Below, one piece after another: positions 21,678 to 41,945 of a stretch of DNA of 64,000 nucleotides; within the stretch, counting starts at the first letter, position 1; the number at the start of each line of letters is the position of its first letter. The notes beneath the pieces were generated by a model. It saw nothing but the letters and a program-made list of their open reading frames with translations. It was not told the DNA's origin and did no database searches. A program made the position numbers and the translations under genes. This stretch comes from Gammaproteobacteria bacterium (GTDB taxonomy: Bacteria > Pseudomonadota > Gammaproteobacteria > SZUA-152): contig DROS01000026.1 in assembly GCA_011321815.1 (NCBI GenBank), forward strand, positions 54-64,053. Direction: 5' to 3'.

Positions 21678-22460
21678 TTATTTTAATTCCAGATGCAGCA
21701 TTTTGCCGCCGGTCTCAGCAGCCAGCTTTTGGTAATGCCAGTTGGTTTCCGGGTTGTCGTGACCGATGGGCAGAGTGTAGACCGGGCTGGGGATATGAAA
21801 ATAGTGAATGCGATCTGCGGGCGGTTCGTCGCCGATAAGTAAGTAGGCACCGGGTGCAGGAGCGTGGTCCGCAGCGTAGCGAAAACCATAACCGATGGTC
21901 TCGTTGGCGCCGGTGAAAGGGGCGCCCTCCATAAGTCGATCAAACATTTCACCCATAGTGCCGCGGTAAGTATCAGCCTTGCCGTCGGAGAACCAAGTGA
22001 GTGCGTCAAGTTTTTTGCCCGAGCGAATGACGATGACGCGCAATACTGGTATGAGAAAATCGCTGACCCCGTGCATGGAGCCGGTGGCGTCGATGAGCAG
22101 GTGCAGACTGTTGCCAGGCAGGTCGCGCAGACCTTTGACGAACACGTCGAAGTCTTTGTGGTTCTTGCCTTTGGCCAGCCCAGCGGCGGCCAGCGCTTTT
22201 TCCATTTGTTTTTCTGTAGACAGGCTGGCGAGGGTATTCATATTAGCCAACAGGCGCTTGCGTTCGGCATTAGATTTGTCCAGTTCGATTTGCAGGTTGG
22301 CCAGGGCGCTTTTCAGCCGGGGGGCTTGATATTGCTCCGCCATGCGCGCGGTAATAAGGATGGTGACCAGTAAAAAAATGAAAGTCGCCAACATCAGCAA
22401 GGCAATGTCGGAAAACATTTCGTAGATGTTGGGCGGAGCTGAGCGACGTTTTCTGCGCAT
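21678..22460 (-). CDS. Single-TM protein with ExbD/MotB-like Asp helix, coiled coil and vWA domain
   Basis: EMFSDIALLMLATFIFLL TM segment; MIDAS-like LIDATGSM and LLIGDE; ends LAAETGG. Confidence 0.75.
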   Translation of the reverse strand: MRRKRRSAPPNIYEMFSDIALLMLATFIFLLVTILITARMAEQYQAPRLKSALANLQIELDKSNAERKRLLANMNTLASLSTEKQMEKALAAAGLAKGKNHKDFDVFVKGLRDLPGNSLHLLIDATGSMHGVSDFLIPVLRVIVIRSGKKLDALTWFSDGKADTYRGTMGEMFDRLMEGAPFTGANETIGYGFRYAADHAPAPGAYLLIGDEPPADRIHYFHIPSPVYTLPIGHDNPETNWHYQKLAAETGGKMLHLELK

Positions 22461-22489
22461 ATTTTCTACGAAACAATTAGTATGAATGT

Positions 22490-23467
22490 TTATTTTTTAT
22501 GTTTGTCGCCGAACAGGTAGCCCATTACGCCACGTTCAGCCTGTCTGAGTTTAATTTCCAGCGCCAGGGTTTTTACGTGAGCTTCGCGCAGGCGTACCAT
22601 CTCCCGTAATTGGTCGAGCTCTATGTCCTGGCCGGGTTGTTTTACTTCGGTGGCGAACTCGCGCATTGCCCCCCGGGTATCCGTGAGCAATTTTTGCAGA
22701 TTGGCAATGTTGCGACTCATTATGCTGATTTCAGCATTGATGAGGTGCAGGTCGCGCTCCAATGACGGTTTGAGGTCTGACGAGCAGTAGACTAAACAAG
22801 TGCGTGTCAGGGCATCTTCCAGGCTTTCCACGCCATTTTCATCGATGTGTGCGAAAATGCGCAGCAGTACGCCGCCCAACACGGCCCCTAATAGTGTGGT
22901 GTAAAATGCAGTGCCCATACCGCCCATGGCGCCCCGCAGCCCCGCCAGCAATTGTGCCTGATCCTCGCCCAAAGCGTCCAGAGAACTGGTCAGGCCGGTG
23001 AGGGTTAACGTAAGGCCAGCGACAGTGCCAATCAGGCCCAGGGTGATGAGCAGGTTGCCAATAATTTCCAAGGCGTGGGCAATGCGCTGATAGATGGAAA
23101 ATTCCACATCCACCAAGGCCTCAATATTAAGCTCGCCATTATTGTTGACAATGGTGCGTAACGAGTTGAAAAACTCTGCCACACAACCTTTTTTTTCGGT
23201 TTGTTCAATACCCAGCCAGCCATCACGTTTGGCAACATTTTCCAATTCGTCTACTTTGATGGACTCCAGAGTAAGCAGAATAGTCAGAATAAAGCTGGTG
23301 GTTACTCCTAGCGCAAACAGGCCAATGATGGCCCAGGTGATGCGGCTGGGATCATGTTGTACGAAGGTTAATACCTCCGTATCCTGATACAGCCCCAAGT
23401 AAATGACAATAGCTGCCGCAGCCCACACGACCCACAATACCAGGGCCCGGTATCCTCTCTGTACCAT
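22490..23467 (-). CDS. MotA/TolQ/ExbB proton-channel family protein
   Basis: LLITLGLIGTVAGL and GMGTAFYTTLLG channel helices; C-terminal coiled coil. Confidence 0.85.
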   Translation of the reverse strand: MVQRGYRALVLWVVWAAAAIVIYLGLYQDTEVLTFVQHDPSRITWAIIGLFALGVTTSFILTILLTLESIKVDELENVAKRDGWLGIEQTEKKGCVAEFFNSLRTIVNNNGELNIEALVDVEFSIYQRIAHALEIIGNLLITLGLIGTVAGLTLTLTGLTSSLDALGEDQAQLLAGLRGAMGGMGTAFYTTLLGAVLGGVLLRIFAHIDENGVESLEDALTRTCLVYCSSDLKPSLERDLHLINAEISIMSRNIANLQKLLTDTRGAMREFATEVKQPGQDIELDQLREMVRLREAHVKTLALEIKLRQAERGVMGYLFGDKHKK

Positions 23468-23820
23468 GCGCGATAAGCTCAGTTTCAGTTAGTGACAAAT
23501 CCGGCAGGGTGACAGTTTCATGTCGTGCGTGCCAGTGTATAATTTTTTGTCAGAGTATGTTGCGGGTCCGGGGGTAAGGTCAAATAATGTGGGGGTCCGT
23601 TTTGATTTTATACGGGTGTAGTTGTTTTGCTTGGTGCTCGTCTTTCGATAACCAAATAAAATAGTCAGGTAAATCAAGACCAATTGAGTCTGGTAACTTG
23701 AGGGAAACGTGATATATACTGGCCGTCGTTTGCTTGTCCGGCCGGGGGTAACCGTGTTATACATGGCGCCGAAATTTTTAAACCTTAATTTTTAAGTTCG
23801 AATTTGGGAGGGGAATAAAA

Positions 23821-23910
23821 ATGGGTATTGATGCAACAATTTTTGTTATTTATATCGTCGCGACCGTCGTGTCGTTTGTCGTTGCTGGCATGATGATGAA
23901 AAGAGGCTGA
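23821..23910 (+). CDS. Small single-TM protein (29 aa, absent from ORF track)
   Basis: GGGAGGGG RBS; MGIDATIFVIYIVATVVSFVVAGMMMKRG*. Confidence 0.6.
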   Translation: MGIDATIFVIYIVATVVSFVVAGMMMKRG

Positions 23911-24134
23911 CAAACTCTTTGGGAAGTGAAGAGGTCTTAGGTGGTTTTTGTATGAGTTTTTGCTGCGGTGAGCTGTGGACAGATACGCATGCATTGTTGG
24001 TGAAGCTTGTTGGAAAAGGCTGAGAGGGTGGTAGGCCAGAGCGGGTCAGTAATAAATTAAAGGTGTTAAGCCGGGCAAAACAAGAATTAAATTGCTTATT
24101 ACGAATTAACAATTGGTTGGGAGGGAGTGGTCTT

Positions 24135-24860
24135 ATGCATCTCATAACAAAAGTATCAACAGTCGCGACACTGTTTGCCGCATCTGCGGCGTTTGCCTCT
24201 GTCGGAAGTCAGGGTAATATCGAAAGCGGTAAGAATATTTACATGAATGGCAAGGGTGATGTTCCGGCTTGTAACAGCTGCCATGGCCAGGATGCTATGG
24301 GTGATGATGCCCTGGGCACGCCGCGCCTGGCAGGGCAGGGCTACGTTTTTCTGGTCAAACAGCTGGAAGACTTCGCAACAGACAAGCGCATGGATACCAC
24401 CATGTTTGTCATGAACACCAATGCCAAAGGCCTGAGCGCCCAGGATCGTGCCGATGTATCCGCCTATGCTGCCAGCTTAAGTAAAGAGCTGGTGTCATCG
24501 GATATGGCGCAGGTGAAAGAGTTAGGCAATCCTGTGGGTGTGCGTCACCTGGGCAAGGCTCTCGTTATGTATGGTGCAGCTGATCGTGGTATTGCCTCTT
24601 GCTATTCGTGTCACGGGTTTAATGGCCGCGGTGCAGCGCCAGTTTATCCCATGATCGGTGGTCAAAAATACGTATATCTGGTCAATCAGCTGAAAAAATG
24701 GCGTGATGCCAGTCGCGCCAATGATCCCATGGGTCAGATGCGTGCGATTGCGAAAAACATGACGGATGAGGATATCCATAATGCAGCAACGTATCTGACG
24801 TCGGCTCCTCGTACGACAATGGGCAACTCTCGTGTGCCAGATGACTACCCGCACGACTAA
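24135..24860 (+). CDS. Periplasmic dihaem cytochrome c4 (Cyc1-like)
   Basis: Signal peptide; CNSCH and CYSCH; PRLAGQ and PMIGGQ c4 motifs. Confidence 0.92.
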   Translation: MHLITKVSTVATLFAASAAFASVGSQGNIESGKNIYMNGKGDVPACNSCHGQDAMGDDALGTPRLAGQGYVFLVKQLEDFATDKRMDTTMFVMNTNAKGLSAQDRADVSAYAASLSKELVSSDMAQVKELGNPVGVRHLGKALVMYGAADRGIASCYSCHGFNGRGAAPVYPMIGGQKYVYLVNQLKKWRDASRANDPMGQMRAIAKNMTDEDIHNAATYLTSAPRTTMGNSRVPDDYPHD

Positions 24861-24885
24861 GCTGTTGCGTTGATCCATATGTGCT

Positions 24886-25131: not shown

Positions 25132-25776
25132 ATGTCAAAAGAAAAGCAATCACTGAAAAGTGGTGAAAAGATTTTGTTTGGGATTGTGGCTGTGTTTATC
25201 GGTTTGGCTGTTATCGCTTATGCGGCGCTGGAAACCTACCGCATGTCACGTACTGAGCCTTTGTTCGATAACAAAACACACTACAATTTTTCGGAGGCGG
25301 GGCATTTGGGTTCCCGTTTATTCCGTGAAGCACGTTGTACAGCCTGTCATCGTGCATTGCGTAATGGCACCAACATGGGGTTGTCGCTGGACGGTGTTGG
25401 TTCGGTGCGGACACTGGATTGGCTGGTTGCCTTTTTGGCTGATCCGGAGGCGACTTATGGAGCCAAAACGTTTGACCATGGTCCTAAACCTAAAGAAGCT
25501 GCTTATGTTGCGCAGATGCCGGAAAAAGACCGGTATGCCATTGCGGTGTTTATTTCTGAGCTGAAGGCAGAGCAGGGCTCGTCATCAGCAGCAATGCCAC
25601 CGGAAGGGCGTTCAGCTTTTATCGACAACATGGTGGGTGCTTGGGCGCCCGCCGAGTGGAAAGAGCGTTTTCAGGATATTCGAACCAAGCAGGCGCCTCA
25701 AGGAGCCGCCGCTGGGTCAGCGTCTCAGCCGGCGCCGCAAGAGACAAGTTCGCCAGAAGCCAAAGTCCAGGAGTAA
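25132..25776 (+). CDS. Membrane-anchored monohaem cytochrome c
   Basis: N-terminal TM helix, CTACH. Confidence 0.85.
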   Translation: MSKEKQSLKSGEKILFGIVAVFIGLAVIAYAALETYRMSRTEPLFDNKTHYNFSEAGHLGSRLFREARCTACHRALRNGTNMGLSLDGVGSVRTLDWLVAFLADPEATYGAKTFDHGPKPKEAAYVAQMPEKDRYAIAVFISELKAEQGSSSAAMPPEGRSAFIDNMVGAWAPAEWKERFQDIRTKQAPQGAAAGSASQPAPQETSSPEAKVQE

Positions 25777-25781
25777 TTATC

Positions 25782-26318
25782 GTGAGCAGCAGTCATCAGG
25801 AACCGTGGGAGCGGGACACGGAATATACACGTTATACTTTGTGGTTTGTTTACGCATGCATTATTTACAGCCTTATCGGTTTTTCCTGGGGGGCGCTGAT
25901 GGGCGGTATTTCTGAATTTCGTCATTTTGTAGATCATCGTTTGCACGGTGACCTGATTGTGCGTGCGCACACGCACGTCAATTTGCTGGGTTGGGTGGAG
26001 ATGGCGATTTTTGCTGCAGTGTATTACATTATTCCTCGCTTGGTGAAACGTCCCATTTACAGCCTCAGACTGGTGAAGCTACATTTTTGGACGCATAATT
26101 TTGGCCTGATTGGTATGGTGGTATTTTTTACAACGGCGGGTGTGTTGGGTGGTTTGACTGGCGAAACCGGTACGCCCGAGCAGGTTGAGGCCGTGGTAAA
26201 GCCCATCTTGGCCACTATGGGGATTTTTGGCACTATAGTGTTGCTGGCAAATTTTATTTGGGCGTACAACCTGTTCCGCACCTGCGCAGGTTGGGAAAAA
26301 AACAGGACTAAAGCATGA
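25782..26318 (+). CDS. Short 4-TM haem-copper oxidase subunit I homologue
   Basis: RAHTHVNLLGW...YYIIPRLVKRPIYSLRLVKLHFW matches one CcoN repeat; GTG start after GGAG. Confidence 0.8.
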   Translation: MSSSHQEPWERDTEYTRYTLWFVYACIIYSLIGFSWGALMGGISEFRHFVDHRLHGDLIVRAHTHVNLLGWVEMAIFAAVYYIIPRLVKRPIYSLRLVKLHFWTHNFGLIGMVVFFTTAGVLGGLTGETGTPEQVEAVVKPILATMGIFGTIVLLANFIWAYNLFRTCAGWEKNRTKA

Positions 26319-26821
26319 AGATATGGCGGTATTTGAGTGTTTTTTTGATGGTGACGCTTCTGTCTGGCTGTCTTTTGTTTGATGATGGCAGCTACAAGGT
26401 TGGCATGACCGTGCCGAGCTTGCGCACCAAAACATTGGCTGATGTTGGTGGTGACCTGAGCCGTATCACCAGTTATCGTTACCCCGATAAGCGTATGTAC
26501 CAGTATTCGCTTGATGACGCCCTGGCCAAGGGGCAGGTGATGGTGCTGGCTTTTGCCACGCCGGGGCATTGCACACAATGTGACAAGCACCTGCAAATGC
26601 TCAAGGGTATAATGGACAAGTATGAGGATAAAGTGCTGTTTTTGCACATGGATCAATACCAGAACCCTGAGGCCTTTAATGCACTTACGGTGATTGGTGA
26701 TCCGTGGACTTATATTATTGATGGTAAAAACACCATACGTTTGAGGCGTGCCGGGCGCATGCTTTACCGCGAAGTGGATGCTGTGCTTGCCAGTTTGCTA
26801 AAAGAAGAGAAGGCGAGCTAA
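26315..26821 (+). CDS. Thioredoxin-fold lipoprotein
   Basis: LSGC lipobox; FATPGHCTQC CxxC; DPWTYIID cis-Pro region. Confidence 0.75.
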   Translation: MKIWRYLSVFLMVTLLSGCLLFDDGSYKVGMTVPSLRTKTLADVGGDLSRITSYRYPDKRMYQYSLDDALAKGQVMVLAFATPGHCTQCDKHLQMLKGIMDKYEDKVLFLHMDQYQNPEAFNALTVIGDPWTYIIDGKNTIRLRRAGRMLYREVDAVLASLLKEEKAS

Positions 26822-26826
26822 CGGAC

Positions 26827-27279
26827 GTGGCGAAATCTGAGATGTTTGAGTTGTCACAAGACCGTAAAGGTGTGACTTGGGATGTGTTGATGTATGTGCC
26901 CACCGTGGTAGGGTTAGGCATTGGTGCGTTGATGTTTTGGTACGATAAAAACCAAGGGTTGGCTTACCTGTTGTTTTTTCTGGCCTGTTTCTTCCTTTTT
27001 CAAGGGGTGCATCGTATTCTTGGACGTATGCTGGTGCTTCCTCAATCCCCTGTTTCATTGGATGTATCCAGGCAGCGGGTATCACTGGCGTTACGCAATG
27101 GTGAAGTCGTTGAGCTGGTTAAAAACGTACGCTATTTTTCAGATCATGCGGGCAAGTCGTTTGGTCTCACCGGCATGGATATGATGGGCTCCAAACGTCA
27201 GTATGTTTTTCATAAAGGCCAGTTTGCTGATGTCGTTGCTTTTGGCAGGGTGGCGGATGCGCTAAAAGTGTTTGCTTAA
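26827..27279 (+). CDS. Conserved-looking membrane protein (2 TM + soluble domain)
   Basis: Closely coupled to the upstream gene; two hydrophobic helices. Confidence 0.7.
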   Translation: MAKSEMFELSQDRKGVTWDVLMYVPTVVGLGIGALMFWYDKNQGLAYLLFFLACFFLFQGVHRILGRMLVLPQSPVSLDVSRQRVSLALRNGEVVELVKNVRYFSDHAGKSFGLTGMDMMGSKRQYVFHKGQFADVVAFGRVADALKVFA

Positions 27280-27298
27280 CCCGCTCGCGAGGTTTGCG

Positions 27299-27493
27299 TT
27301 AACGTTGTCTGCGCCGCCGGACAATGTCCCACCCCATGAATGTCAGTATGGCCACGCCAATCAGGCAGGCACCTGCGATGATCCATTGTTCGGTTGTTTT
27401 CGAAACCAGTCCTCCAATCAGCATGTGTATGGAATAGCCGAGAATAAAGATAGAGCTGACAGCCACGGAAATGAGGATGATTATTTCTTTCAT
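27299..27493 (-). CDS. Small 2-TM protein
   Basis: Two hydrophobic helices and a basic C-tail WDIVRRRRQR. Confidence 0.65.
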   Translation of the reverse strand: MKEIIILISVAVSSIFILGYSIHMLIGGLVSKTTEQWIIAGACLIGVAILTFMGWDIVRRRRQR

Positions 27494-27883: not shown

Positions 27884-28141
27884 ATGAAAAATCCACTAAT
27901 GCTTTCTCTTGTTGGGGGAATGCTAACTGGGATGGGTAACGGCAGTGTGTTTGGTGCCGCGCTCATGTGCTTTCTTGGCCGTGGTCAGTTTAGTGACTGG
28001 GGAGGATGGGGCAGTCAGGCATATGATCCCAGCACTTTCACGGGATTTATTGACTGGGCGATGATTGTATTCGGTATTGCCTTTTTCATTATCCTCAAGG
28101 TTGCGGTTGGCCGCCATTTAGAGATTGAAGCCAAGGCGTAG
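27884..28141 (+). CDS. Small Gly-rich membrane protein, first gene of the oxidase operon
   Basis: AGGAGG RBS; two hydrophobic segments. Confidence 0.75.
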   Translation: MKNPLMLSLVGGMLTGMGNGSVFGAALMCFLGRGQFSDWGGWGSQAYDPSTFTGFIDWAMIVFGIAFFIILKVAVGRHLEIEAKA

Positions 28142-28198: not shown

Positions 28199-28288
28199 AT
28201 GGCTACCTTTGCGGGAATGATGGGGATTTTGTTAGCACTGAGTTTTATGTGGTTCAGCTGGTTTTTGCTGATGCCTCGTAGCAAGTAA
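28199..28288 (+). CDS. Small single-TM protein (29 aa, absent from ORF track)
   Basis: GGAGGAG RBS; MATFAGMMGILLALSFMWFSWFLLMPRSK*; directly before ccoN. Confidence 0.7.
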   Translation: MATFAGMMGILLALSFMWFSWFLLMPRSK

Positions 28289-28323: not shown

Positions 28324-29730
28324 ATGTTTAAATACCTATTTGCGAAAGCGGAAGATATCCCGGCTGGGTCAGCCGCGATTTACTTCGGCTATTCGTCGAT
28401 TATTTGGTTTGTAATTGGAACTGGTTTGGGTTCCTTTAATGCCGCCAAGCTCGCATTTCCGGACTTTGTCACGGGCAGCGAGATTTTGTCGTTTGGGCAT
28501 ATGCGTCAAGTTCACGTTCTGGCTGTTATCCTTGGCTGGATATCCATGGCCTTCGCCATGGCAATGATGTACATCACACCGGCGTTGGGTAACACCAAGC
28601 TCTGGTCTGAGAAGCTGGGCGTCTGGAACTGTTTTATCTGGAATATTGGACTGTCTCTGGGACTGTTCCTGTTATGGCTGGGCGTAAGTTCAGGTCGTGA
28701 ATATTCCGATATGCCGTTTTTCATTGACGTAGTGGTTATTCTGGGTATTTTGACACCACTGTGTGTTAACGTGTTCATGACGATCAAAACTCGTCGTACA
28801 CAGGGTATCTACACCACCAACTGGTTTTTTGGTGCCGCCACTTTCATGGTCATCATCGTGTTTTCTGTGGGCAACTCACCTGAGTTCTTTCAGTTGACAG
28901 GTCTGACTGAGGCATACCTGACATGGTGGTTCGCTCACAATGTGTTAGGTCTGTGGATTACCCCGGTTGCTGCGGCTATTTCGTACTACGTTGTGCCAAA
29001 AGTAACGGGCAATCCATTGTACTCGCACCGTATTGGCCACTTGCACTTCTGGTCGGTTGTGGTGTTTTATTCAACGCCGGCTGCTCATCACCTGATGTCT
29101 GCTCCTCTGCCAGAATGGCTGAAGTCTTTTGCCTCGGTGGAAGGTGTGCTGATTCTGGTGCCAGCCATCGCCTTCGTGTCGAACTTGCTGCTCACTATGA
29201 CAGGCAAGTGGCGCATGTTTGTGGAAAATATTGAGATCAAATTCACCATTACAGGTGTGTTGATGGCGATTCCGCTAAACATGCAGGGTGGTTTCCAGCA
29301 GACTCGTGCAATTAACTGGTACATTCATGGTACTGGCTGGATTGTTGCCCATGCTCATCTGGCGTTGTTGGGCTTTTCCACTTTCCTGGAAGCCGCTGCC
29401 GTATACTATGGCTTGCAGACACTGTTGCGTCGTAAACTGTACTCATTAGGCTTGGCCAACTTCCATTTCTGGATGTTGCTGGTTGGTTTTACCACCTACT
29501 GGGTATCTATGACTATCGCTGGTTTGATTCAGGGCGCAGGTAAAATCTACGAAGTGCCTTACATCGATGTCGTGATTGCTGAACATCCTTACATGATTGC
29601 ACGTTGGGTGGGTGGCACCATGGTGTTCCTCGGAAACTGCGTATGGCTGTACAACATGTATATGACTGCTCGTGTCGGTACTGCGATCCCAGCGGGACGC
29701 CTGCCACATGAACTGGCCTACGAACGTTAA
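28324..29730 (+). CDS. ccoN: cbb3-type (C-family) cytochrome c oxidase subunit I, divergent
   Basis: Six His ligands (RQVH, WWFAHN, AAHH, AHAH); helix-VII cross-link Tyr in HFWSVVVFY; GREY Ca-binding loop. Confidence 0.92.
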   Translation: MFKYLFAKAEDIPAGSAAIYFGYSSIIWFVIGTGLGSFNAAKLAFPDFVTGSEILSFGHMRQVHVLAVILGWISMAFAMAMMYITPALGNTKLWSEKLGVWNCFIWNIGLSLGLFLLWLGVSSGREYSDMPFFIDVVVILGILTPLCVNVFMTIKTRRTQGIYTTNWFFGAATFMVIIVFSVGNSPEFFQLTGLTEAYLTWWFAHNVLGLWITPVAAAISYYVVPKVTGNPLYSHRIGHLHFWSVVVFYSTPAAHHLMSAPLPEWLKSFASVEGVLILVPAIAFVSNLLLTMTGKWRMFVENIEIKFTITGVLMAIPLNMQGGFQQTRAINWYIHGTGWIVAHAHLALLGFSTFLEAAAVYYGLQTLLRRKLYSLGLANFHFWMLLVGFTTYWVSMTIAGLIQGAGKIYEVPYIDVVIAEHPYMIARWVGGTMVFLGNCVWLYNMYMTARVGTAIPAGRLPHELAYER

Positions 29731-32104: not shown

Positions 32105-32112
32105 GAGGAATA

Positions 32113-32879: not shown

Positions 32880-33370
32880 GATTCCGGGTGCGTTGGTTTT
32901 CTTTTTGGGTGGCGATATTTGTCGGTTGTCTGGTGAACTTTTTGGGTGACTGGCTGCTTGGTATTCGCATAGAGTTGTTTTGGGGGTTGGATACGTTTAA
33001 TTTTTTCTGGTTTTTGCAGTTGTTTATTTTGCCGGTATTGGTGGGCATTTCAGTGTCATACATTTACGGGCTGGGTGGTAAGTGGATTGCTATATTTCCA
33101 CCACTTATTGTGCGCTTTGCGGCGTATTATCAAACTGTTGAATACTCTGGTGTACCACGAGGCGCGGAGTTGATGCCGCTGGGTTGGTGGGGGTTTTTCG
33201 TGATTCTGGCGATGGAAGCCTCAATGATTGGTGGTGTGCTCGGTGAAATCATGAACAAACGGGTCTATGGGTGGAAAAAGGCGGTACATGTTTCGGATAA
33301 CGACGTATCGCCTGAGATGTTGTCCGGCCAGGCAAAGTCTGCCGAAAAAGCTGTTACTAAGACTGAGTGA
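32876..33370 (+). CDS. 4-TM membrane protein
   Basis: ATGA overlap with the upstream gene; four hydrophobic helices. Confidence 0.75.
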   Translation: MRFRVRWFSFWVAIFVGCLVNFLGDWLLGIRIELFWGLDTFNFFWFLQLFILPVLVGISVSYIYGLGGKWIAIFPPLIVRFAAYYQTVEYSGVPRGAELMPLGWWGFFVILAMEASMIGGVLGEIMNKRVYGWKKAVHVSDNDVSPEMLSGQAKSAEKAVTKTE

Positions 33371-33379
33371 GGCTTGGGT

Positions 33380-34466: not shown

Positions 34467-34691
34467 GTGAGTAAAATATCCCGTTCGTTCGTATTTTTGA
34501 TGCTGCTGGCAACAACATGTTCTGTGTATGCGGTGGATAGTTACCGTTATGCACATGTTACCATTGAAACGCCTTGGGCAATTTTCATTTTTTTGTTGCT
34601 TATTATTCTTTTTCCGTTTGTTCTTATGGCAATACTGTATTGGTATTTTGCGGTTAAAAAATCAGAGATTAAAGATGCAGAACATGAGTAG
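34467..34691 (+). CDS. Small exported or membrane protein
   Basis: Signal-like N-terminus plus one TM; ATGA overlap with the next gene. Confidence 0.65.
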   Translation: MSKISRSFVFLMLLATTCSVYAVDSYRYAHVTIETPWAIFIFLLLIILFPFVLMAILYWYFAVKKSEIKDAEHE

Positions 34692-35046
34692 GGCATTTTT
34701 TTGTTTATGCACATGGTTGATGTTGAGTGTGGCTGCGCCAGGTTATGCGGATGGCTCTGTGGAAGAGAAAACGGAGCAGCAAAGCGCGGGAGTGATACAG
34801 GCCTTCACGAATGACAGATCAGCAAAGAGCGAGCTGGTTGCCATTGATGAGAAAACCAAATATCTGGTTATGTTTTTGATGGGTGTTCCTCTGTTGTTGC
34901 TCATTATTACTACAGTGGCGCTTGGTGTTGCCATGGTTGTATATGGCAAGCGCGTGTTTGTTGCCCACATGGTGTGTGCTGGGCTGAGTTTGACGTTGGC
35001 GCTAGGGCATGCTGTGGTGGGTATTGTCTGGTTTTATCCTTTTTAG
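34684..35046 (+). CDS. Membrane protein with signal peptide and two His-bearing TM helices
   Basis: FVAHMV...LGHAVVGIVWFYPF; possible haem b ligands. Confidence 0.7.
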   Translation: MSRAFFCLCTWLMLSVAAPGYADGSVEEKTEQQSAGVIQAFTNDRSAKSELVAIDEKTKYLVMFLMGVPLLLLIITTVALGVAMVVYGKRVFVAHMVCAGLSLTLALGHAVVGIVWFYPF

Positions 35047-35185
35047 CTGGTCCACTGACCTTGGGGCTCTCGAATAAATCAAGGGCGATCTGAGCAGTTG
35101 TTGTCATAAAAAATTGAGCTGGGCGATTACTTAAACGAGTGTGGGCAGGGTTGTCAAATGATTGTTAACGCCTCTTAGACATTCA

Positions 35186-37807
35186 ATGCAAAATATTCCT
35201 GCATTACGAAGGCTTGGTCTGTTTCTTGTTTGTTTATATCTGATCTCCGGTGCCGCCAGTCTCTCCTACGAAATTCTCTGGACGCGCATGTTGTCCTTGC
35301 AATTTGGGGTCAGCATCTTTGGTGTGGTTGTTACGGTAACTGCCTATATGGCGGGCTTGGGTGCGGGCAGTTTTTTAGGTGTGCACTGGAGTCGTTTGAC
35401 GGGCCGCCCTTTGCGCCTGTTTGCTTGTATTGAATTATTTGTTGCTGCTACAGCCGTATTGCTTCCCACATTGTTCCAAATGGTAGATACACAGTTTGCC
35501 GTTATCGCGGGCAGTATCAGTTATTCCGGTTGGATTGCGTTGCAAATTTTTATTGTTACGCTGGTGTTGATGATTCCTGCCATGGCTATGGGTGCCGGCT
35601 TCCCGTTAATTTTATCCGCAGTACAAGGTGCAAAAGTTTCTCTGGGTAGTATCTATGGGATCAATGCCCTTGGGGGGGCTTTGGGGGCATTATTACCGCT
35701 ATGGTTGTTGCCTATGTTGGGCTGGCTGTCATCACTGAGGGCTGTCGCATTAATCAGTTTTGTGGTTGCGGCGGTTTTGTTTTTATTGTCCTGGCGGTTT
35801 GAGTCGGTGCAGAAAAAAGAAAAGGTGGAGCCTCTGGTTCGCCCCCCCACAAAATGGCTGCTGATTTATGCGGGGATAGGAGCTGGTGCGCTTTTGCTGG
35901 AAATTGGTTGGGCGCGTTTATTCGGTATGGTGATGTTGCGTACTGAGTATGTGTTGGCGATTATTTTGGCCGTATTTTTGCTGGGTATTGGTTTTGGCAG
36001 CCTGTTGGCTCGATTACTGGTGAGCAAACGTTGGTTCAGCGTCTTGCCGGTTGTGGCTTGTGGATTTGCTTTATTGAGTTTGTGGTGGTTGCCGACACTT
36101 TCAGCCTGGATTGAACAGGCGCATTTTTCTTCTTTGTTTGCCGCATTATGGTTACAGGGCTCGGCAATCATTATGTTGACCTTGCCAGTGACGTTGGTGC
36201 TGGGCGCCTGGCTGCCGTTGCTGGCAGAGCGCGTGGGTAACCGTTATCAAAGCGGAATGTGGTTGTATGGGGCTAATTCACTCGGGGCTGCATTAGGCAC
36301 GCTGTTGGCCGGTTTTGTTTTTATTCCGAGCATTGGCAGTAGCAGCACGGTTGCTCTGGGAGCGATGTTGTTATTGATTTTAGGGCTGGTATTGGCACAG
36401 GGATGGGCTTCCCGGCCTGCCTGGGCCTTGGTCATTGTGATGGGGTTGCTGAGTATGACGGTGGCGGATATGCCGCCGGTATCCCGTTTATTGCCGCAGG
36501 CTTATGCACAGGCAAAAACGCTTTCCCTGCACGAAGATGCTATTTCTATCACCCATGTTGTTGCAGGCCCGGATGGCCAGCGACAGTTATTGGCCGACAT
36601 GCGGCGCATGGATGCCTCGTCGGAGCCCACTGCTGTAGAGGCGCAAAAAAATCAGGCACGATTACCGTTGTTGTTGCATGCTGAGCCACAGCGGGTTTTG
36701 TTTTTGGGTTTAGGGACGGGGATTTCTGCGTCAGCGTCTTTGGCATTTCCCGGGTTGCAGCGCACTGCCGTTGAATTATCACTGGGCGCAATTAACGCCG
36801 CACAAAAGGAGTTCCGGCCAGTCAATGGCAGCATTACCGATTATTTAAAAATTGTGCGTGATGATGCCCGCCACTTTTTATTGAGCGATTCTGAACATTA
36901 TGACGTGATTGTTGGCGATCTGTTTCACCCTGATCTGGTGGGGCGTAGCGCGTTGTTGTCCCGTCAACAATTCATTCGTGCACAAAAACGCTTGTCACCC
37001 GGTGGTGTTTTTGTGCAGTGGCTGGCGCTGAATCAATTTGATATCAATAGTCTGCAAGTGGTTTTGGCGACCTTCAAAGACGTATTTCCGGACGCTGTTA
37101 TTTTTGTGGATGCTTTTCGGTTGGCGATGGTCGGTGTACGTGATGGCAGTATTGGTAGTGTGCAGTTATTGGGTAATGTACAGCGGCTAACGGATGGACA
37201 GGCCGAGTTGGCAACGGGAGGGGAGGGGGCGTGGACATGGCTGGGACGTTATTGGGGGGGGATTCCTGAATTTGATGTACCGCGACAGGATGAGTGGGCT
37301 CCAGTGATTGAATATCAACTGCCAGAGGCTCGCTACGATGGCCAACTGGATATTTCCAAGATATTGTCATGGTTATTATCTATTCGTTCTCCGTTGGGTG
37401 CGGCAGCCAGTTATCTTGGTGTCAGTGAGAATAATTTCCCTCAATTTGAGCGCGCATATATTGCCACGGAATTAGGGCATCGCAGTTGGTTGGCTTTGTT
37501 GTATGGGAAGGCTGCGGAAGGCCAACGGTTGCTACCGCTAGCTTATCAAGCCAACCCAAAAGACCGCTGGGTAGGTTTTGCATTGGCGGATGCGGTTTTG
37601 CAGGATCGTGCTGCGGCAGAGGCGCGCGGGCTGAATGAACGGCAGTTGTTGGAATCGGTGCTGCGTATACGGCCGGATCATGCAGAGGCATTGCGTCGCC
37701 TGTGGGAGCTGGCGGAATTGGCGGGGAACCGTGAGCAGGCCGCCGTTTACCGGCAGCGTTTCGCGGCGTTGAACCCACTGGATTCTGCGGTGCAAAAAAC
37801 TCAGTAA
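35186..37807 (+). CDS. Multi-TM / spermidine-synthase-like SAM-binding fusion protein
   Basis: SGAASLSYEILWTR repeats, FLGLGTG, DDARHFL, YDVIVGD; TPR-like C-terminus. Confidence 0.88.
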   Translation: MQNIPALRRLGLFLVCLYLISGAASLSYEILWTRMLSLQFGVSIFGVVVTVTAYMAGLGAGSFLGVHWSRLTGRPLRLFACIELFVAATAVLLPTLFQMVDTQFAVIAGSISYSGWIALQIFIVTLVLMIPAMAMGAGFPLILSAVQGAKVSLGSIYGINALGGALGALLPLWLLPMLGWLSSLRAVALISFVVAAVLFLLSWRFESVQKKEKVEPLVRPPTKWLLIYAGIGAGALLLEIGWARLFGMVMLRTEYVLAIILAVFLLGIGFGSLLARLLVSKRWFSVLPVVACGFALLSLWWLPTLSAWIEQAHFSSLFAALWLQGSAIIMLTLPVTLVLGAWLPLLAERVGNRYQSGMWLYGANSLGAALGTLLAGFVFIPSIGSSSTVALGAMLLLILGLVLAQGWASRPAWALVIVMGLLSMTVADMPPVSRLLPQAYAQAKTLSLHEDAISITHVVAGPDGQRQLLADMRRMDASSEPTAVEAQKNQARLPLLLHAEPQRVLFLGLGTGISASASLAFPGLQRTAVELSLGAINAAQKEFRPVNGSITDYLKIVRDDARHFLLSDSEHYDVIVGDLFHPDLVGRSALLSRQQFIRAQKRLSPGGVFVQWLALNQFDINSLQVVLATFKDVFPDAVIFVDAFRLAMVGVRDGSIGSVQLLGNVQRLTDGQAELATGGEGAWTWLGRYWGGIPEFDVPRQDEWAPVIEYQLPEARYDGQLDISKILSWLLSIRSPLGAAASYLGVSENNFPQFERAYIATELGHRSWLALLYGKAAEGQRLLPLAYQANPKDRWVGFALADAVLQDRAAAEARGLNERQLLESVLRIRPDHAEALRRLWELAELAGNREQAAVYRQRFAALNPLDSAVQKTQ

Positions 37808-37881
37808 TTTAATCGGCTATATCATCTGTTTTGAAGGGCGTGCGCAATGAATAAACAGGTTTACAGTGGTAGTATGTGGCT

Positions 37882-39210
37882 ATGAGCGGTAACGATACCT
37901 TGAGTAAAATCCCCATCAGAGTAGAAGCTGCCAATGCCGGTGTCAGCTTTCACTGGCGTCGTCGGTTGGCGCAATTTTTGTTCATTGCCATTGCCGTGAT
38001 TATTCCGGTGAGTGGATTGCTGCGTATTGATTTGGTGGCAGGTGCCTTTGTGGTGCTGGGGCATCAAATTTGGTGGGCCGACTTTTTTCTGATTTTTGGT
38101 TTATGGATGCTGCTGGCCAGCGGCATGGTGATGTTGTACTCCACGGTGGGCACAGCTTTCTGTGGTTGGGCTTGCCCACAAAACACCTTGTCAGAGATAG
38201 CCAATGAATGGACTTACCGTCTGCTTGGCAAACGTGCGGACATGAGTGTTTCCGGCGCAAAAATGAAAGTGGCCGACAGTAAAAACCGCCTGTTGAATTG
38301 GACGTTATTGGGGGCGATTTTACTGGCCATGTCCATGTTGCTGGCGTTGATCCCCCTGCTTTATTTTTATCCGCCAGACGTCATCTGGTCTTTTATGACT
38401 TTCCGGGATGATGAGCGTCTGGCGAGTTCATTGCATTATATTTACGCCGTTTTTGTGATACTTGTTTTGGTCGATGTGAGTGTCATTCGTCATTTCTGGT
38501 GTCGCTTTATGTGCGTTTACCGTGTGTGGCAACATGGCTTCAAAACCAAGCAGACATTGAAAATTGCCTATGACGATACACGCTCTTCCCAGTGTGAAAA
38601 GTGCAATTATTGCAGTACCGCATGTTTTATCGGGCTTGACCCGCGCAACACGGACATGTACGACAGCTGTATTAATTGTGGTGAATGTATTGATGCCTGT
38701 GCTCAGCTACAAGGCAAAAAAGGTGAAACAGGTTTGCTGTCTTTTGAAAGGGGCGCATCGGGAAAATCATCCGCTTTACGCAATCTGGCCTCGATCTCCT
38801 TACGTGTGCGCTGGACTCTGCCATTTTCTGCACTAGGTTTGGGGATGTTTATTTGGGGGTTGTTAACGTATAACGGATATCATTTGGCGGTTTATCGTGC
38901 CGACCAACAATTTGGCTCAGTGATTCGTGACTATCGCATTGCCGTTTCCAACAAACTGTATCGTCCTGCAGAGGCCACGTTACGTATTGAAGGTTTACCA
39001 GAAAACAGCTATTCGATACCGGAAAAAGTACTGCGTTTTGATAGTGCCGGGCGGATTGATGTAAATCTGCGCATTGAGCCCAATGTGCCACCTGGTTTGC
39101 ATATGTTTTTGGTGCATGTGGATACAGCGGATGGCTGGCATAGTGTTTTTCGTGTACAACATTTTGTGGCGGAAAATGTTGCGCCCGAAGTAGAAAATAG
39201 CGCTTTTTGA
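37882..39210 (+). CDS. ccoG: CcoG/FixG-like membrane 4Fe-4S protein
   Basis: FCGWACPQ, WCRFMC, CEKCNYCSTAC, CINCGECIDAC; Ig-like C-terminus. Confidence 0.82.
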   Translation: MSGNDTLSKIPIRVEAANAGVSFHWRRRLAQFLFIAIAVIIPVSGLLRIDLVAGAFVVLGHQIWWADFFLIFGLWMLLASGMVMLYSTVGTAFCGWACPQNTLSEIANEWTYRLLGKRADMSVSGAKMKVADSKNRLLNWTLLGAILLAMSMLLALIPLLYFYPPDVIWSFMTFRDDERLASSLHYIYAVFVILVLVDVSVIRHFWCRFMCVYRVWQHGFKTKQTLKIAYDDTRSSQCEKCNYCSTACFIGLDPRNTDMYDSCINCGECIDACAQLQGKKGETGLLSFERGASGKSSALRNLASISLRVRWTLPFSALGLGMFIWGLLTYNGYHLAVYRADQQFGSVIRDYRIAVSNKLYRPAEATLRIEGLPENSYSIPEKVLRFDSAGRIDVNLRIEPNVPPGLHMFLVHVDTADGWHSVFRVQHFVAENVAPEVENSAF

Positions 39211-39256
39211 TATACCCGGAAATGCTGTATTTATGTATTAAACTGTGGACCTGCCA

Positions 39257-39757
39257 ATGAATAAAACTGAAGATACACCCAAAGTCGAAGATGAGGAAAA
39301 AGATCCTCCACCTCCCGGTAATCTTAAAGATACCCAATGGGGTGAATTGCCAGCCGATAATTTTGGTTATGCCTCCGATGAAGAACGCCGGGCCAAACGG
39401 GGTCTGGAAGACTGGGAGTTGGTGGAAAAAATTCCCGAGTCACAACAGCCTGTGCCACGCTGGTTTATTGGTATTATTGTTGCCGTGATGTTAGTGGCAG
39501 TAGGGCTCAGCTTTCCTTTTTGGGGGGACCGTCCCGGTTATGAACGTGAGTGGATTAATTGGGGGTTTGGTGCGGCGCTGTTGTACACTGCCGTGTTTGG
39601 TACTTTCGTTTATTTTATGGTGAATTTTTACGGCTCCAAAGTGGCGGGGCGTTTGGATACGGACAAAGAAAAAAATGCAGAGTCACCCACAGACAGTAAA
39701 GAAGCCAGCAGCAAAAAAAATGCAGCACACCCGACGTCCAAATCTACAGACAAATAG
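39257..39757 (+). CDS. Second haem-less CcoP N-terminal-like membrane protein
   Basis: IPESQQPVPRWF-TM-FPFWGDRP parallels the 30722 ORF (ITEDNNRLPPPI-TM-FPLWGQRP). Confidence 0.65.
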   Translation: MNKTEDTPKVEDEEKDPPPPGNLKDTQWGELPADNFGYASDEERRAKRGLEDWELVEKIPESQQPVPRWFIGIIVAVMLVAVGLSFPFWGDRPGYEREWINWGFGAALLYTAVFGTFVYFMVNFYGSKVAGRLDTDKEKNAESPTDSKEASSKKNAAHPTSKSTDK

Positions 39758-40043
39758 CTGTTTCGGTTTAATGGCGCTGTTGTTGTCGGCCTGTGATATC
39801 CCCAACGAGCCATTGGTGTACCCTGATGCTGATTCGTCAGCAGCGCAGCTTTATCAGGCGAAATGCGCCAGATGTCATAATGCGCCGCAGCCTCATGCGC
39901 ATACTGCACAGGCATGGCCTGCTATTTTGCAGCGCATGCAGATGCGCATGAAAACAAAAGGGGCGACACCGTTGAATAAAAATGAATTAAGCGAAGTGCT
40001 GGATTATCTTCAGCGACATGCCGCACCGGTAGAGTTGAAATGA
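39720..40043 (+). CDS. Monohaem cytochrome c lipoprotein
   Basis: LSAC lipobox, CARCH, WPAILQRM; start uncertain (39720 or 39771). Confidence 0.8.
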   Translation: MQHTRRPNLQTNSCFGLMALLLSACDIPNEPLVYPDADSSAAQLYQAKCARCHNAPQPHAHTAQAWPAILQRMQMRMKTKGATPLNKNELSEVLDYLQRHAAPVELK

Positions 40044-40474
40044 AACAACAATTTTCTGTTTGTTTTGTCCGTTGTTTTAAACGTTCGTTTTTTATTATGT
40101 TGTGCGCAGGATTGTTGTCTGCCTGCTCTAACGAGCAATCGGTCATTCTTGGCCCGCAGCAGTGGCAAGACCTGGGATTCCGGGTGGAAACACGGCCCAG
40201 TCCCCTGCGGGTAGGTATGAATGAATTTATTGTTATTGCCAGCCGCGAGGAATACAAACCCGGTGTAGGATTGGTGGTAATGCTACGGGTGGGGGAAGAC
40301 AAAGAATGGCGGCAGGCGATCCAGGACGGTTTTACCGGCGTGTATCGTCGCGCTGTGAAAGTGGATGACCCTGCAACACAATCATTAGCAGTGCATGTGC
40401 GTCGGGCGAAAAGTGACGATAAAAATGATGAAACGGTGTTGTTTTTTCCGTTGAGTCAAAATCGGGCAAATTAA
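40040..40474 (+). CDS. Lipoprotein with Ig-like (YtkA/FixH-like) character
   Basis: LSAC lipobox; ETRPSPLRVGMNEF. Confidence 0.65.
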   Translation: MKQQFSVCFVRCFKRSFFIMLCAGLLSACSNEQSVILGPQQWQDLGFRVETRPSPLRVGMNEFIVIASREEYKPGVGLVVMLRVGEDKEWRQAIQDGFTGVYRRAVKVDDPATQSLAVHVRRAKSDDKNDETVLFFPLSQNRAN

Positions 40475-40586
40475 TCATTTTAACTATGAAACAAACCCAC
40501 AGCAGGCTGGCGGACGATTAACACCGTAATGTCCCCAGCGGAAGGTGTCGGAGTGTTGTGGGTGTGCTGTGCGCCGGTGATTTGAT

Positions 40587-41096
40587 TTATTGTTGGGTCT
40601 TGGCTGCCAGACGGCGACTGCTGCGCCAGCGCCGTAATAATAAAATGCGCTCTCCGCCACGGGTATCACAGCAGGTTGGGCAGGTGAGGTACGCCAAATA
40701 CATTTCTTTGGGCATGCGACCACTGTCCAATAACAGCATTTGCTGCTCACGCACGCTGGTGCGCAGGGTTCCAATGCCGCCCTCGTGTAAAAAACCCTGT
40801 AATTGGAAATCAGCGGGCAGATGTAAAAAATGGCGTGAAGGTGATTCACCTTTTTCCAGTAACCGAATCATTTTCCCGCGCAGCCAGCCAGTGCGTGTTA
40901 ATGCAAAACCGGGCCAGCGCTCGCGTAATTCCAACTGCTCAATTTCGTTTTGTTGACGCTGCTTGTAGGTTTCATATGACAGCGGCATGTGCAGGAAGCT
41001 GGCAATGGGTAATGCGTGCGCAGTGTGGTGGGCCAGATCAACATCCTGTTTGTGCCAATCAGGGTATTCGCCAGGGCAGCCGCATTCAAGCATCAT
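40587..41096 (-). CDS. Cytoplasmic hypothetical protein with CGC and CPTCC motifs
   Basis: ATGA overlap with the upstream short CcoN homologue; Cys clusters at both ends. Confidence 0.75.
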   Translation of the reverse strand: MMLECGCPGEYPDWHKQDVDLAHHTAHALPIASFLHMPLSYETYKQRQQNEIEQLELRERWPGFALTRTGWLRGKMIRLLEKGESPSRHFLHLPADFQLQGFLHEGGIGTLRTSVREQQMLLLDSGRMPKEMYLAYLTCPTCCDTRGGERILLLRRWRSSRRLAAKTQQ

Positions 41097-41662
41097 GACT
41101 GTTTTTCGGAACTCAACTTGTTGCGGATTTTGCGGAAAGTCAAAAATATATTGGCAAAATAGACCCAGAAACCAATACCCATGATGGTGGAAACGGTGGC
41201 GATAGTGGGGCCGTAAAAGCGATGAATATTGTCCACCGAATCGGGGTCTTCCAACAGGGCAATGCCCTCAAGAATGCCGAAGGTCATCAGGGTGCTGTAA
41301 AAGCCGGCGATACCGAGGCTGGTCCACCAAAAACTGTGTTGTACCAAGCGCCTTGAGTAGAGGCGGACGCCGCCCATTTTGGGTAACAGGTAATATGAGG
41401 CGCCCATGAGAAAAATCACCACGCCGCCAACTACGTTGATGTGGGCATGAGCCAGTGGGTCGATGAGATGTCCGGGGCCGCCGTAGGGGCTGCCGATACT
41501 GTCCAGCCATGCGCGCACCGGGCGGATCACTTGCAGGACACCGTGTACAGTGCCAATGAACAGGCACAACGCGGATACCATCAGATATTTAACAAGATAG
41601 GCGTCATCATCTGACGCGGTGGACGGATTGTTTGGTTGGTGTGGTGTTTGCATGAAGTACAA
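41093..41662 (-). CDS. Second short 4-TM haem-copper oxidase subunit I homologue
   Basis: LAHAHINVVGG...YYLLPKMGGVRLYSRRLVQHSFW. Confidence 0.8.
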   Translation of the reverse strand: MYFMQTPHQPNNPSTASDDDAYLVKYLMVSALCLFIGTVHGVLQVIRPVRAWLDSIGSPYGGPGHLIDPLAHAHINVVGGVVIFLMGASYYLLPKMGGVRLYSRRLVQHSFWWTSLGIAGFYSTLMTFGILEGIALLEDPDSVDNIHRFYGPTIATVSTIMGIGFWVYFANIFLTFRKIRNKLSSEKQS

Positions 41663-41781
41663 CTGTCTTTATATGTAGAAGGTCCAGAGGAGGGTGCATG
41701 CCGCACGCTCAGGTACTGTGTTTGTTTACAGCCCCTGATTGTGGGTGTTTTTTATCCGTGACGTGCATGCAAAGGCCGCAC

Positions 41782-41810
41782 AAAAAAGCCCGGGAAATCC
41801 GGGCTTTTTT
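41782..41810 (-). terminator. Intrinsic terminator
   Basis: AAAAAAGCCCGG...CCGGGCTTTTTT. Confidence 0.75.
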
Positions 41811-41840
41811 GCATTCGGGGCCAGGAGCCCCGTATTTGTT

Positions 41841-41945
41841 TTATTTCTTGCGGGCGTCAGCAGCAGCATCACACCCCATACCACCCAACATGGTGGTAGA
41901 GACGAGAATGAACAAAAACACAGTAATTGGTACGATGATGGCCAT
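41841..41945 (-). CDS. Small single-TM protein (34 aa, absent from ORF track)
   Basis: GAGGAG RBS; MAIIVPITVFLFILVSTTMLGGMGCDAAADARKK*; has its own terminator. Confidence 0.6.
   Translation of the reverse strand: MAIIVPITVFLFILVSTTMLGGMGCDAAADARKK

Follow-up and report, generated by a model that had tools for sequence, protein, structure and literature searches.

Does a cassette in which ccoN and ccoO lie among many genes for small membrane proteins and cytochromes c encode a canonical cbb3 oxidase, a distinct terminal oxidase, or several unrelated membrane systems? The question is raised by a ~20-kb region on contig DROS01000026.1 of a gammaproteobacterial genome (GenBank assembly GCA_011321815.1, SZUA-152 lineage), of which we analysed a stretch of 64,000 nt; we refer to this whole stretch as the window, and all coordinates are positions within it. 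A first-pass annotation had proposed a distinct low-oxygen terminal oxidase complex with its own assembly machinery. Our analysis points to a distal-type cbb3 oxygen reductase whose electron donors, additional small subunits and dedicated maturation proteins are encoded alongside it, a reading to which we assign a probability of roughly 0.78; that the assembly machinery is the enzyme’s own is suggested by linkage. The cassette has already been described in print and is not a new system. What is added here is a carrier with no canonical ccoNOQP besides the cassette, a two-way test of co-occurrence, and orf85, a candidate subunit with a predicted docking site on CcoN.

The gene called ccoN at first pass (28324..29730, + strand) is confirmed by a match to the Pfam family COX1 at 254 bits; its product is the catalytic subunit of a putative ‘distal’ C-family haem-copper oxidase, and its best match among solved structures is Pseudomonas stutzeri CcoN (3mk7_A, 204.4 bits, versus 39.2 bits for NorB, 4xyd). 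The P. stutzeri counterparts of residues H64, H205, Y249, H255, H256, H343 and H345 are, in this order, H60, H207, Y251, H257, H258, H345 and H347, which we take to be the ligands of the haems and of CuB plus the cross-linked tyrosine. All six ligand histidines and Y249 are invariant in 41/41 aligned members of the clade to which the window protein belongs, and the helix-VII tyrosine, located six residues before the HH pair, is also kept in 30/30 canonical sequences. Two other positions set the groups apart: P. stutzeri Y317 and E323 are replaced by A315 and Q321 in the window protein, with alanine and glutamine found in all 13 clade members of the tree, and tyrosine and glutamate in 30/30 canonical CcoN. 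In canonical CcoN these two residues belong to the proton-entry path and provide a hydrogen-bond partner for the proximal histidine; judging by the alignment, the cytoplasmic proton-entry region of the distal CcoN is remodelled.

The terms proximal and distal for two forms of cbb3 oxidase are used, after Ducluzeau et al. 2008, in the accessible text of PMC8788666, PMC7029218 and PMC10734462. When we scanned 61 genomes (the source genome and 60 relatives) with TIGR00780, the scores were bimodal, with canonical CcoN at 660–801 bits and the distal type at 216–234 bits; canonical CcoN exceeded the cut-off of 583.15 bits in 32/61 genomes, and the window CcoN, with 217.8 bits, lies below it. In a midpoint-rooted tree that combined 78 clade members with 30 canonical CcoN of related genomes, the two groups part at the root on long branches, with 29% identity between the groups and 76–97% within the clade. 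After addition of 73 full-length representatives, the canonical clade has a support of 1.0 and excludes the distal clade, which is placed among non-canonical relatives, and in a search of 1.84 billion representatives the distal clade forms a single 50% cluster, with the next relatives at 57% and 40% identity. The nesting of CcoN had been chosen beforehand as a check on the proposal: because the TIGR00780 scores and both trees separate the groups, as does the 29% identity, this CcoN falls outside the canonical ccoNOQP enzymes. The resemblance to ‘distal’ ccoNO in iron oxidisers, which the first-pass annotation had pointed out, also holds up, since Mariprofundus and Gallionella relatives are 77–85% identical to the window CcoN (77–97% across the Mariprofundus, Gallionella and Tenderia loci).

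Two side observations concern the surroundings of this clade. A CcoN relative in another genome (G076:C157:4029-5387) scores 664 bits against the clade profile, as compared to 924–1008 bits for clade members, and no orf85 match was found in that genome; it may represent a sister type of the distal oxidase. Furthermore, each ligand position is a histidine in only 37–43 of 73 CcoN-like representatives and the tyrosine is kept in 36/73; with the metal ligands missing from so many relatives, there appears to be a large radiation of oxidase-like proteins that are incapable of oxidase function.

The source genome, which is 99.16% complete, has PF00115 matches only in CcoN and in two mini haem-copper oxidase (mini-HCO) proteins described below, and the FixO profile matches only the CcoO of the cassette. 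The distal CcoN is thus the sole haem-copper oxidase of the genome, and the organism’s cytochrome-c-linked respiration accordingly depends on the distal enzyme; some genomes of the same genus also have a canonical ccoN, which the source genome does not. Cytochrome bd is present as well. The description of the host as a probable sulfur oxidiser is backed by soxB (886 bits) and dsrA (597 bits), and together with two RuBisCO large subunits these genes support a sulfur-oxidising autotroph. As the sole cytochrome-c-linked terminal oxidase, the distal enzyme would therefore serve sulfur (Sox/Dsr) lithoautotrophy at low oxygen.

Co-occurrence of the accessory genes with the CcoN clade had likewise been set as a check beforehand, and the genes do travel with it. 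In a one-genome-per-species scan, 316 of 344 candidate stretches contained a CcoN relative; the 80 best of these were analysed with flanking DNA of up to 10 kb on each side. The distal oxidase type is therefore widespread: carriers are found in Gamma-, Beta- and Zetaproteobacteria and include lithotrophs of oxic–anoxic boundaries, such as iron oxidisers, bacteria that feed on electrodes and, like the source organism, sulfur oxidisers known from metagenomes of hydrothermal vents. Counting only loci that reach the expected place of a gene (1.5 kb margin), linkage to CcoN is seen for CcoO and FixPN207 in 68/68 loci each, for orf85 in 65/65 and for mini-HCO A in 58/58, followed by cyt214 (54/56), cyt162 (63/65), orf93 and orf134 (63/66 each), orf164 (58/62), FGE359 and orf172 (55/59 each), SpdSyn881 (50/55), Trx168 and orf150 (55/62 each) and cyt265 (41/52); the MotA-like and vWA260 genes are found at their upstream place in 13/48 and 12/46 loci, respectively. 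CcoG444 gives a tblastn match in 50/80 loci, many of which end before its place. Gene order is unchanged in all 18 loci compared, a subset of the 80 that spans the Gamma-, Beta- and Zetaproteobacteria, and the arrangement of seven further, extended loci also agrees with it, apart from the block movements given below.

The reverse test, starting from 151 genomes in which each family of the class is represented once and with a CcoN threshold of E up to 1e-120, detected the distal CcoN in 12 genomes and orf85 in 10; all 10 are within the 12, and in all 10 orf85 is located directly upstream of CcoN. Of the two remaining CcoN genomes, one has its CcoN cut at the contig start and the other encodes a more divergent relative. 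In extended loci from other families the CcoG–orf170–orf144 group is present in 5/7 and the hyd169–mini-HCO B pair in 4/7, and the block from CcoG to mini-HCO B is inverted as a whole in loci L126 and L128. In 3/7 extended loci (L126, L128 and L129, from three other families) the MotA/vWA pair recurs on the opposite side of the cassette, which marks it as a looser associate and not a chance neighbour.

The assignment of ccoO is upheld by a FixO match of 63.7 bits for CcoO316 (29757..30707, +), covering profile positions 52–144 only; this monohaem protein, with one CWWCH motif, resembles canonical CcoO over residues 174–266 only. Residues ~40–170 constitute an insert of ~130 residues between the anchor helix and the haem domain, modelled by AlphaFold as a mixed beta/alpha domain with a block predicted local distance difference test (pLDDT) score of 80–96; a fold comparison of the insert against 48,161 chains with VIA-align yielded no match at Z of at least 5, the best being Z 3.0 for the C-terminal part. 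That a haem-bearing ccoP is lacking, as noted at first pass, is confirmed by the gene after ccoO, FixPN207 (30722..31345, +): its product has two transmembrane (TM) helices of a CcoP-type N-terminal anchor and no CxxCH motif, and its FixP_N match is weak (E 0.0032). The FixPN207 profile gave 0 matches to solved structures at E up to 1. In hhalign, FixPN207 aligns to orf170 (39245..39757, +; FixP_N E 0.049) with a probability of 93.4 and E 2.5e-7, the two having in common an N-terminal module that ends in FP[LF]WG[QD]RP. This likeness, taken with the weak FixP_N matches of both, indicates that FixPN207 and orf170 are two haem-less paralogues of the CcoP anchor.

A script count returned the five c-type cytochromes and six CxxCH motifs reported earlier. 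Two motifs are located in cyt265 (24132..24860, +), a periplasmic dihaem cytochrome of the c4 type (Cyc1-like), and one each in cyt214 (25132..25776, +), CcoO316, cyt162 (32391..32879, +) and cyt122 (39675..40043, +). While cyt214 and cyt162 are monohaem proteins anchored in the membrane by one TM helix, both with a PF00034 match, cyt122 is a monohaem cytochrome c lipoprotein with a lipobox and matches to DHC and Cytochrome_CBB3. The c4 type of cyt265 is indicated by scores of 78 bits against the P. aeruginosa c4 (6q2u/8smr) and 77.6 bits against 1h1o, and the protein is a likely electron donor.

Directly upstream of the core, orf85 (27884..28141, +) codes for a membrane protein of 85 residues with an invariant glycine-rich segment, TGMGNGSVF. 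Modelling of a complex of CcoN with the product of this open reading frame (ORF), a type of check put forward at first pass, gave a score of 0.67 (runs 0.70, 0.00 and 0.67) as compared to 0.00 for the best of three controls. The 0.67 mark is reached by 58/80 solved complexes and 2/110 mismatched pairs, a rough calibration for which our own alignments were used; across the runs, contact agreement was at least 0% and partner pLDDT at least 60. The predicted interface brings the glycine-rich segment together with CcoN residues 294–339 and 383–422, taking in residues 313–325 and thus Q321 and the neighbours of A315. orf85 is therefore predicted to pack on the CcoN proton-entry region as an extra subunit, and this predicted binding is new here.

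Both mini-HCO proteins that the first-pass annotation had listed are present, as judged by COX1 family matches. Mini-HCO A (25773..26318, +; 181 aa) is a stand-alone homologue of CcoN helices 9–12, aligning to CcoN 322–450 in hhalign with a probability of 98.3 and 34% identity; it has an HxH pair and an HFWxHN motif, and H66, H68, H104 and H108 are invariant in 40 sequences. Its AlphaFold2 model is a helical bundle (pLDDT 82.8), the best structural matches of which are CcoN chains, at E 0.025–0.1 and TMq 0.57. The protein has 786 homologues, with a length of 169–185 aa among the matches listed (120 of 786), and this uniform length together with the CcoN-like fold indicates a stand-alone protein and not a gene fragment. 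Mini-HCO B (41093..41662, −), the second homologue of CcoN helices 9–12, matches COX1 at 42.7 bits over profile positions 312–407, retains an AHAH motif and sits 12–13 kb from CcoN in genomes of family f1. As the alignment of mini-HCO A to CcoN reveals no CuB ligands, the mini-HCOs cannot themselves be oxidases.

Most of the maturation-type assignments made at first pass are also supported by the family scans, at varying strength. CcoG444 (37876..39210, +), a polyferredoxin membrane protein with Fer4_18 and Fer4_5 matches, is CcoG/FixG-like with 121.3 bits to TIGR02745, below the cut-off of 316.7, and among solved structures it finds ferredoxin-motif matches only, at E 0.0016 and above. The CxxC lipoprotein, Trx168 (26315..26821, +), has a lipobox, an invariant HCTQC motif and weak AhpC-TSA and Thioredoxin matches, and appears to be of the TlpA/DsbE-like thioredoxin fold. 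FGE359 (33374..34453, +), a membrane-anchored protein of the FGE-sulfatase fold, matches PF03781 at 180.8 bits and has OvsA, ToxD, SUMF2 and FGE as its nearest solved structures. The spermidine-synthase-like gene codes for SpdSyn881 (35162..37807, +), a fusion of an MFS-like membrane domain of ~14 TM helices, a spermidine-synthase-like fold at residues 498–650 (E 1e-7) and a TPR tail, which scores 92.2 bits to NF037959 against a cut-off of 40. For the CcoS-like factor all that we recovered is a sub-threshold FixS match of orf93 (32113..32394, +; single TM; E 0.011, with 15.9 bits where the cut-off is 23.1). In the genome as a whole, no FixS match was obtained at E 0.01 and no FixH match over the cut-off, the best scoring 18.6 bits (<23) on another contig. 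The window itself encodes no copper ATPase, as stated at first pass; two over the cut-off, as well as a Sco homologue, are located on other contigs of the genome. A third P-type ATPase (G000:C60:32086-36769; 392 bits) lies just under the copper-ATPase cut-off and 3 kb from an ORF with the weak FixH-like stretch of 18.6 bits; this pair may be what is left of a set of the ccoGHIS type.

From gene content, ligand conservation, clade position and co-occurrence we infer the subunit composition, the electron route, the roles of the accessory proteins and O2 as the substrate, as follows. Electrons would enter from cyt265 and/or cyt214 and cyt162, move on via the one haem c that the enlarged CcoO carries and then via the CcoN low-spin haem b (H64/H345), and reach the haem b3–CuB centre (H343; H205, H255 and H256; Y249), where O2 would be reduced to water and proton-motive force built. 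The haem-less anchor FixPN207, with its paralogue orf170, would replace the dihaem CcoP, and orf85 would pack against the remodelled proton-entry region. The CcoG-like polyferredoxin, the CxxC lipoprotein and the FGE-fold and MFS/spermidine-synthase-like proteins are likely copper or redox maturation factors that would take over from CcoH and CcoS, which are missing, and the mini-HCOs may be assembly or auxiliary cofactor-binding proteins.

Set against the canonical cbb3 oxidases (P. stutzeri 3MK7/5DJQ, P. aeruginosa 8SMR and Rhodobacter capsulatus 6XKW), the cassette shares the CcoN fold and its metal ligands, a monohaem CcoO, a c4-type donor and a CcoG-like factor. It differs in the absence of the dihaem CcoP, in the 130-residue CcoO insert, in the replacement of E323 and Y317, and in the addition of many small membrane proteins and of the two mini-HCOs; compared to the canonical CcoGHIS set, it has no CcoS or CcoH over the cut-off, and copper ATPases are encoded only on other contigs.

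The same arrangement can be recognised in earlier descriptions. A preprint (bioRxiv 10.1101/2022.05.06.490989) describes, in its accessible text, a 26-protein region of Candidatus Tenderia electrophaga (ALP51721–ALP51744) as a membrane complex plus assembly proteins, ‘a sort of alternative complex IV’, and states that the region had been noted earlier in freshwater iron oxidisers. As far as annotation order and the loci of metagenome-assembled genomes (MAGs) can be compared, its gene order is the same as in the window: dihaem cytochrome, monohaem cytochrome, truncated CcoN, thioredoxin, small ORFs, CcoN, CcoO, small ORFs, monohaem cytochrome, ‘Ser/Thr kinase’, small TM protein, CcoG, monohaem cytochrome and truncated CcoN. 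The ‘Ser/Thr kinase’ of that annotation corresponds to our FGE-fold gene (compare ToxD). In two Ca. Tenderia MAG loci (L032 and L041) CcoN is 88% identical to ours, and the layout of L032 is the same as in the window. While the preprint gives Tenderia three cbb3 loci, the source genome has no canonical ccoNOQP.

A still earlier report (Emerson et al. 2013, PMC3770913) lists 20 genes in conserved order common to Sideroxydans lithotrophicus ES-1 and Mariprofundus ferrooxydans PV-1, 14 of which have Leptospirillum homologues, and gives their function as unknown. This suite, known to us by its description, is like the cassette in consisting of mostly hypothetical, partly haem-bearing genes in conserved order, and the Gallionellaceae and Mariprofundus loci in our set have the same order as the window. 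Cytochromes on ‘a conserved cassette’ are mentioned in the accessible part of McAllister et al. 2020 (PMC7029218), with reference to Field et al. 2015. In the literature searched we found no biochemical or structural work on the distal type, and no measured subunit make-up, O2 affinity or proton pumping; the additions made here leave a structural study of the distal enzyme better defined.

A more far-reaching version of our reading, which we regard as tentative and rather doubtful, combines several steps: that this is a distinct ‘complex IV’ which has lost Y317 and E323 and gained an orf85 cap, in which CcoP has been split, and in which the mini-HCOs hand over haem or copper. If it were true, the cap, formed by the TGMGNGSVF loop on CcoN 313–325, would imply that the proton path or the regulation differs from the canonical one; the split of CcoP would have produced interchangeable haem-less anchors (FixPN207 and orf170) and separate membrane-anchored cytochromes; and the mini-HCOs, each with an HxH pair, would pass haem or copper to CcoN. 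We know of no haem or copper hand-over factor of the mini-HCO kind for cbb3 oxidases.

Several observations weigh against the distal oxidase with dedicated accessory proteins that we favour. The CcoG-like, FixP_N-like and FixS-like assignments all score below curated cut-offs, one of the three orf85–CcoN runs scored 0.00, and the presence of copper ATPases and a Sco homologue elsewhere in the genome means that the enzyme’s ‘own machinery’ is not self-sufficient. With E323, a residue we take to be important in canonical enzymes, exchanged for glutamine, the distal type may differ in O2 affinity and proton pumping. Linkage, moreover, looks the same for a structural subunit, a maturation factor and an unrelated gene inherited along with them. 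Finally, two strong terminator-like hairpins, identified in promoter and terminator scans that return consensus matches only, lie at 24885-24915 after cyt265 (13 pairs, then a T run) and at 31547-31577 after orf43 (12 pairs, then a T run). They suggest that orf85, s29, ccoN, ccoO, FixPN207 and orf43 form one transcription unit within a region of several, so that the 27 genes may belong to more than one system.

The hairpins that bracket these units also feed the best-surviving of the other explanations, according to which the core operon of orf85, s29, ccoN, ccoO, FixPN207 and orf43 alone makes up the oxidase and the other ~20 genes are separate membrane systems inherited with it, for instance a second redox complex around the two mini-HCOs in the sense of the ‘alternative complex IV’ idea. 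The movement or inversion of the CcoG-to-mini-HCO B block as a module (L126 and L128) fits this explanation, as does the naming of the mini-HCOs as partial oxidases, ‘cbb3-1/cbb3-2’, in the accessible text of the Tenderia preprint. However, the modules were not seen apart from the distal CcoN clade in the genomes searched; the mini-HCO-type matches are confined to genomes of family f1, the majority of which have the distal CcoN in the same search, with 0/29 genomes of other families matching; the CcoG-like protein and the CxxC lipoprotein are typical oxidase maturation proteins; and the mini-HCOs lack CuB ligands and so are not oxidases. We therefore consider such a division of the cassette unlikely.

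It is quite unlikely, too, that the cassette is a dedicated acceptor module for extracellular electron uptake from Fe(II) or a cathode instead of a general terminal oxidase. While most of its carriers are iron oxidisers or Tenderiales, its distribution is likened to that of the uet genes in the available preprint text, and the source genome has a uet-like cluster of tetrahaem, three trihaem and undecahaem cytochromes, the expression data for ES-1 point the other way: in the accessible text of Zhou et al. 2022 (PMC8788666), distal ccoNO is expressed ~three-fold above proximal and is upregulated on thiosulfate. In addition, the sole haem-copper oxidase of a genome with soxB and dsrA must also take electrons from sulfur oxidation.

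The last explanation, a nitric oxide reductase or a haem-copper enzyme with some other substrate, draws on the distance from canonical cbb3, the E323 to Q exchange, the relatedness of C-family enzymes to nitric oxide reductases, the haem-copper subunit I plus monohaem cytochrome subunit that the cytochrome-c-type enzymes also have (NorBC, 4XYD, 3O0R) and the weak NorB match, but we reject it as very improbable, since the active-site tyrosine and a CuB-type site with three invariant histidines are kept, CcoN matches solved cbb3 CcoN far better (204.4 bits) than NorB (39.2 bits), this is the sole haem-copper oxidase in a genome that encodes an O2-dependent HemF (within the window), and the obligately microaerophilic Mariprofundus have the distal type.

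Returning to the extent of the locus, the cassette is flanked by housekeeping genes, with rpsT (21275-21535, −) as the left boundary and a ferredoxin/coaD pair (42120-42919, −) as the right one. Where the first-pass annotation had about 28 genes in a region running to 41945, we find 27 supported genes between these boundaries on the basis of the ORF listing, Pfam and NCBIfam scans and conservation at related loci, and the conserved block comprises 21678-41662 and stops short of the end proposed earlier. The absence of murJ was confirmed among the 35 ORFs of the region and the 38/40 flanking ORFs of at least 90 aa that were scanned. A script assigned TM helices, a signal sequence or a lipobox to almost every product of the cassette.

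At the left end lie two minus-strand genes: vWA260 (21678..22460), for a membrane-anchored protein, and a gene for a MotA/ExbB-like protein with four TM helices (22490..23467). While the MotA assignment is supported by PF01618 (30.6 bits), the vWA part of the pair as first described rests on a feature-search lead (0.88) with no Pfam or NCBIfam match, and vWA260 is at best possibly vWA-like. The ORFs at 23489-23764, 23785-23994, 23846-24145 and 24522-24998 gave no match in the family scans.

Of the tiny membrane ORFs reported at first pass, some are conserved and others not. The 29-aa single-TM peptide s29 (28199..28288, +), directly upstream of CcoN, is conserved in 74/80 loci, including all 18 from Zetaproteobacteria, and the 64-aa protein s64m (27299..27493, −), with two TM helices, in 67/80, including 16 from Zetaproteobacteria. 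By contrast, orf99 and orf50 are conserved in only 11/80 and 2/80 loci and were rejected as genes; orf99 (27272-27571, +; 99 aa) runs antisense to s64m, which is the likely gene of the two. s64m is the sole minus-strand gene within the plus-strand block.

Further small proteins are orf150 (26827..27279, +), with two TM helices and a soluble domain that is possibly bacterial PH-like (PH lead 0.92), for which the family scans gave no match; orf43 (31376..31507, +), a single-TM peptide found in 69/80 loci by sensitive search; and orf164 (32876..33370, +), a polytopic membrane protein with at least three TM helices and no family match. Two annotated ORFs seem to be longer than their genes. In the orf134 ORF conservation begins near residue 62 and only the C-terminal part is conserved, corresponding to a ~71-aa protein with two TM helices (orf134C, 31889..32104, +; 66/80 loci), and for the small membrane protein orf172 (34528..35046, +) the true start is probably near residue 50, with only the C-terminal two TM helices conserved. 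Towards the right end, the lipoprotein orf144 (40040..40474, +) has a lipobox and no family match, and hyd169 (40587..41096, −) is a Bact_hydrolase-family protein (PF20603, 31.2 bits).

Matches to the FNR/Anr box TTGATNNNNATCAA with up to two mismatches are not enriched (40 found, 36.35 expected). A search for RNA runs that contain positions 27800-32900 returned none. Base composition gives no anomaly that would indicate recent horizontal transfer, the GC content of the cassette being 0.486 as compared to 0.505 for the genome, which ranks at the 15th percentile among 468 equally sized windows.

Other contigs of the source genome carry further candidates for electron transfer. The stretch G000:C46:57000-71000 encodes a tetrahaem cytochrome, three c7-type trihaem cytochromes (TIGR04257, 59–63 bits) and an 899-aa ORF with 11 CxxCH motifs, and resembles the uetA–J extracellular electron uptake cluster of Tenderiales as given in the accessible text of the preprint (bioRxiv 10.1101/2022.05.06.490989). 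Two ORFs (G000:C56:13382-14662 and G000:C88:4849-6510) each carry a single CxxCH near the N-terminus, are haem-free over the long rest of their length and end in phenylalanine; with no NCBIfam match, they are candidates for Cyc2-like fused cytochrome–porins by this crude pattern. Finally, adjacent ORFs of 544 and 764 aa at G000:C19:4224-8165, with 21 and 29 CxxCH motifs, respectively, encode giant multihaem cytochromes.

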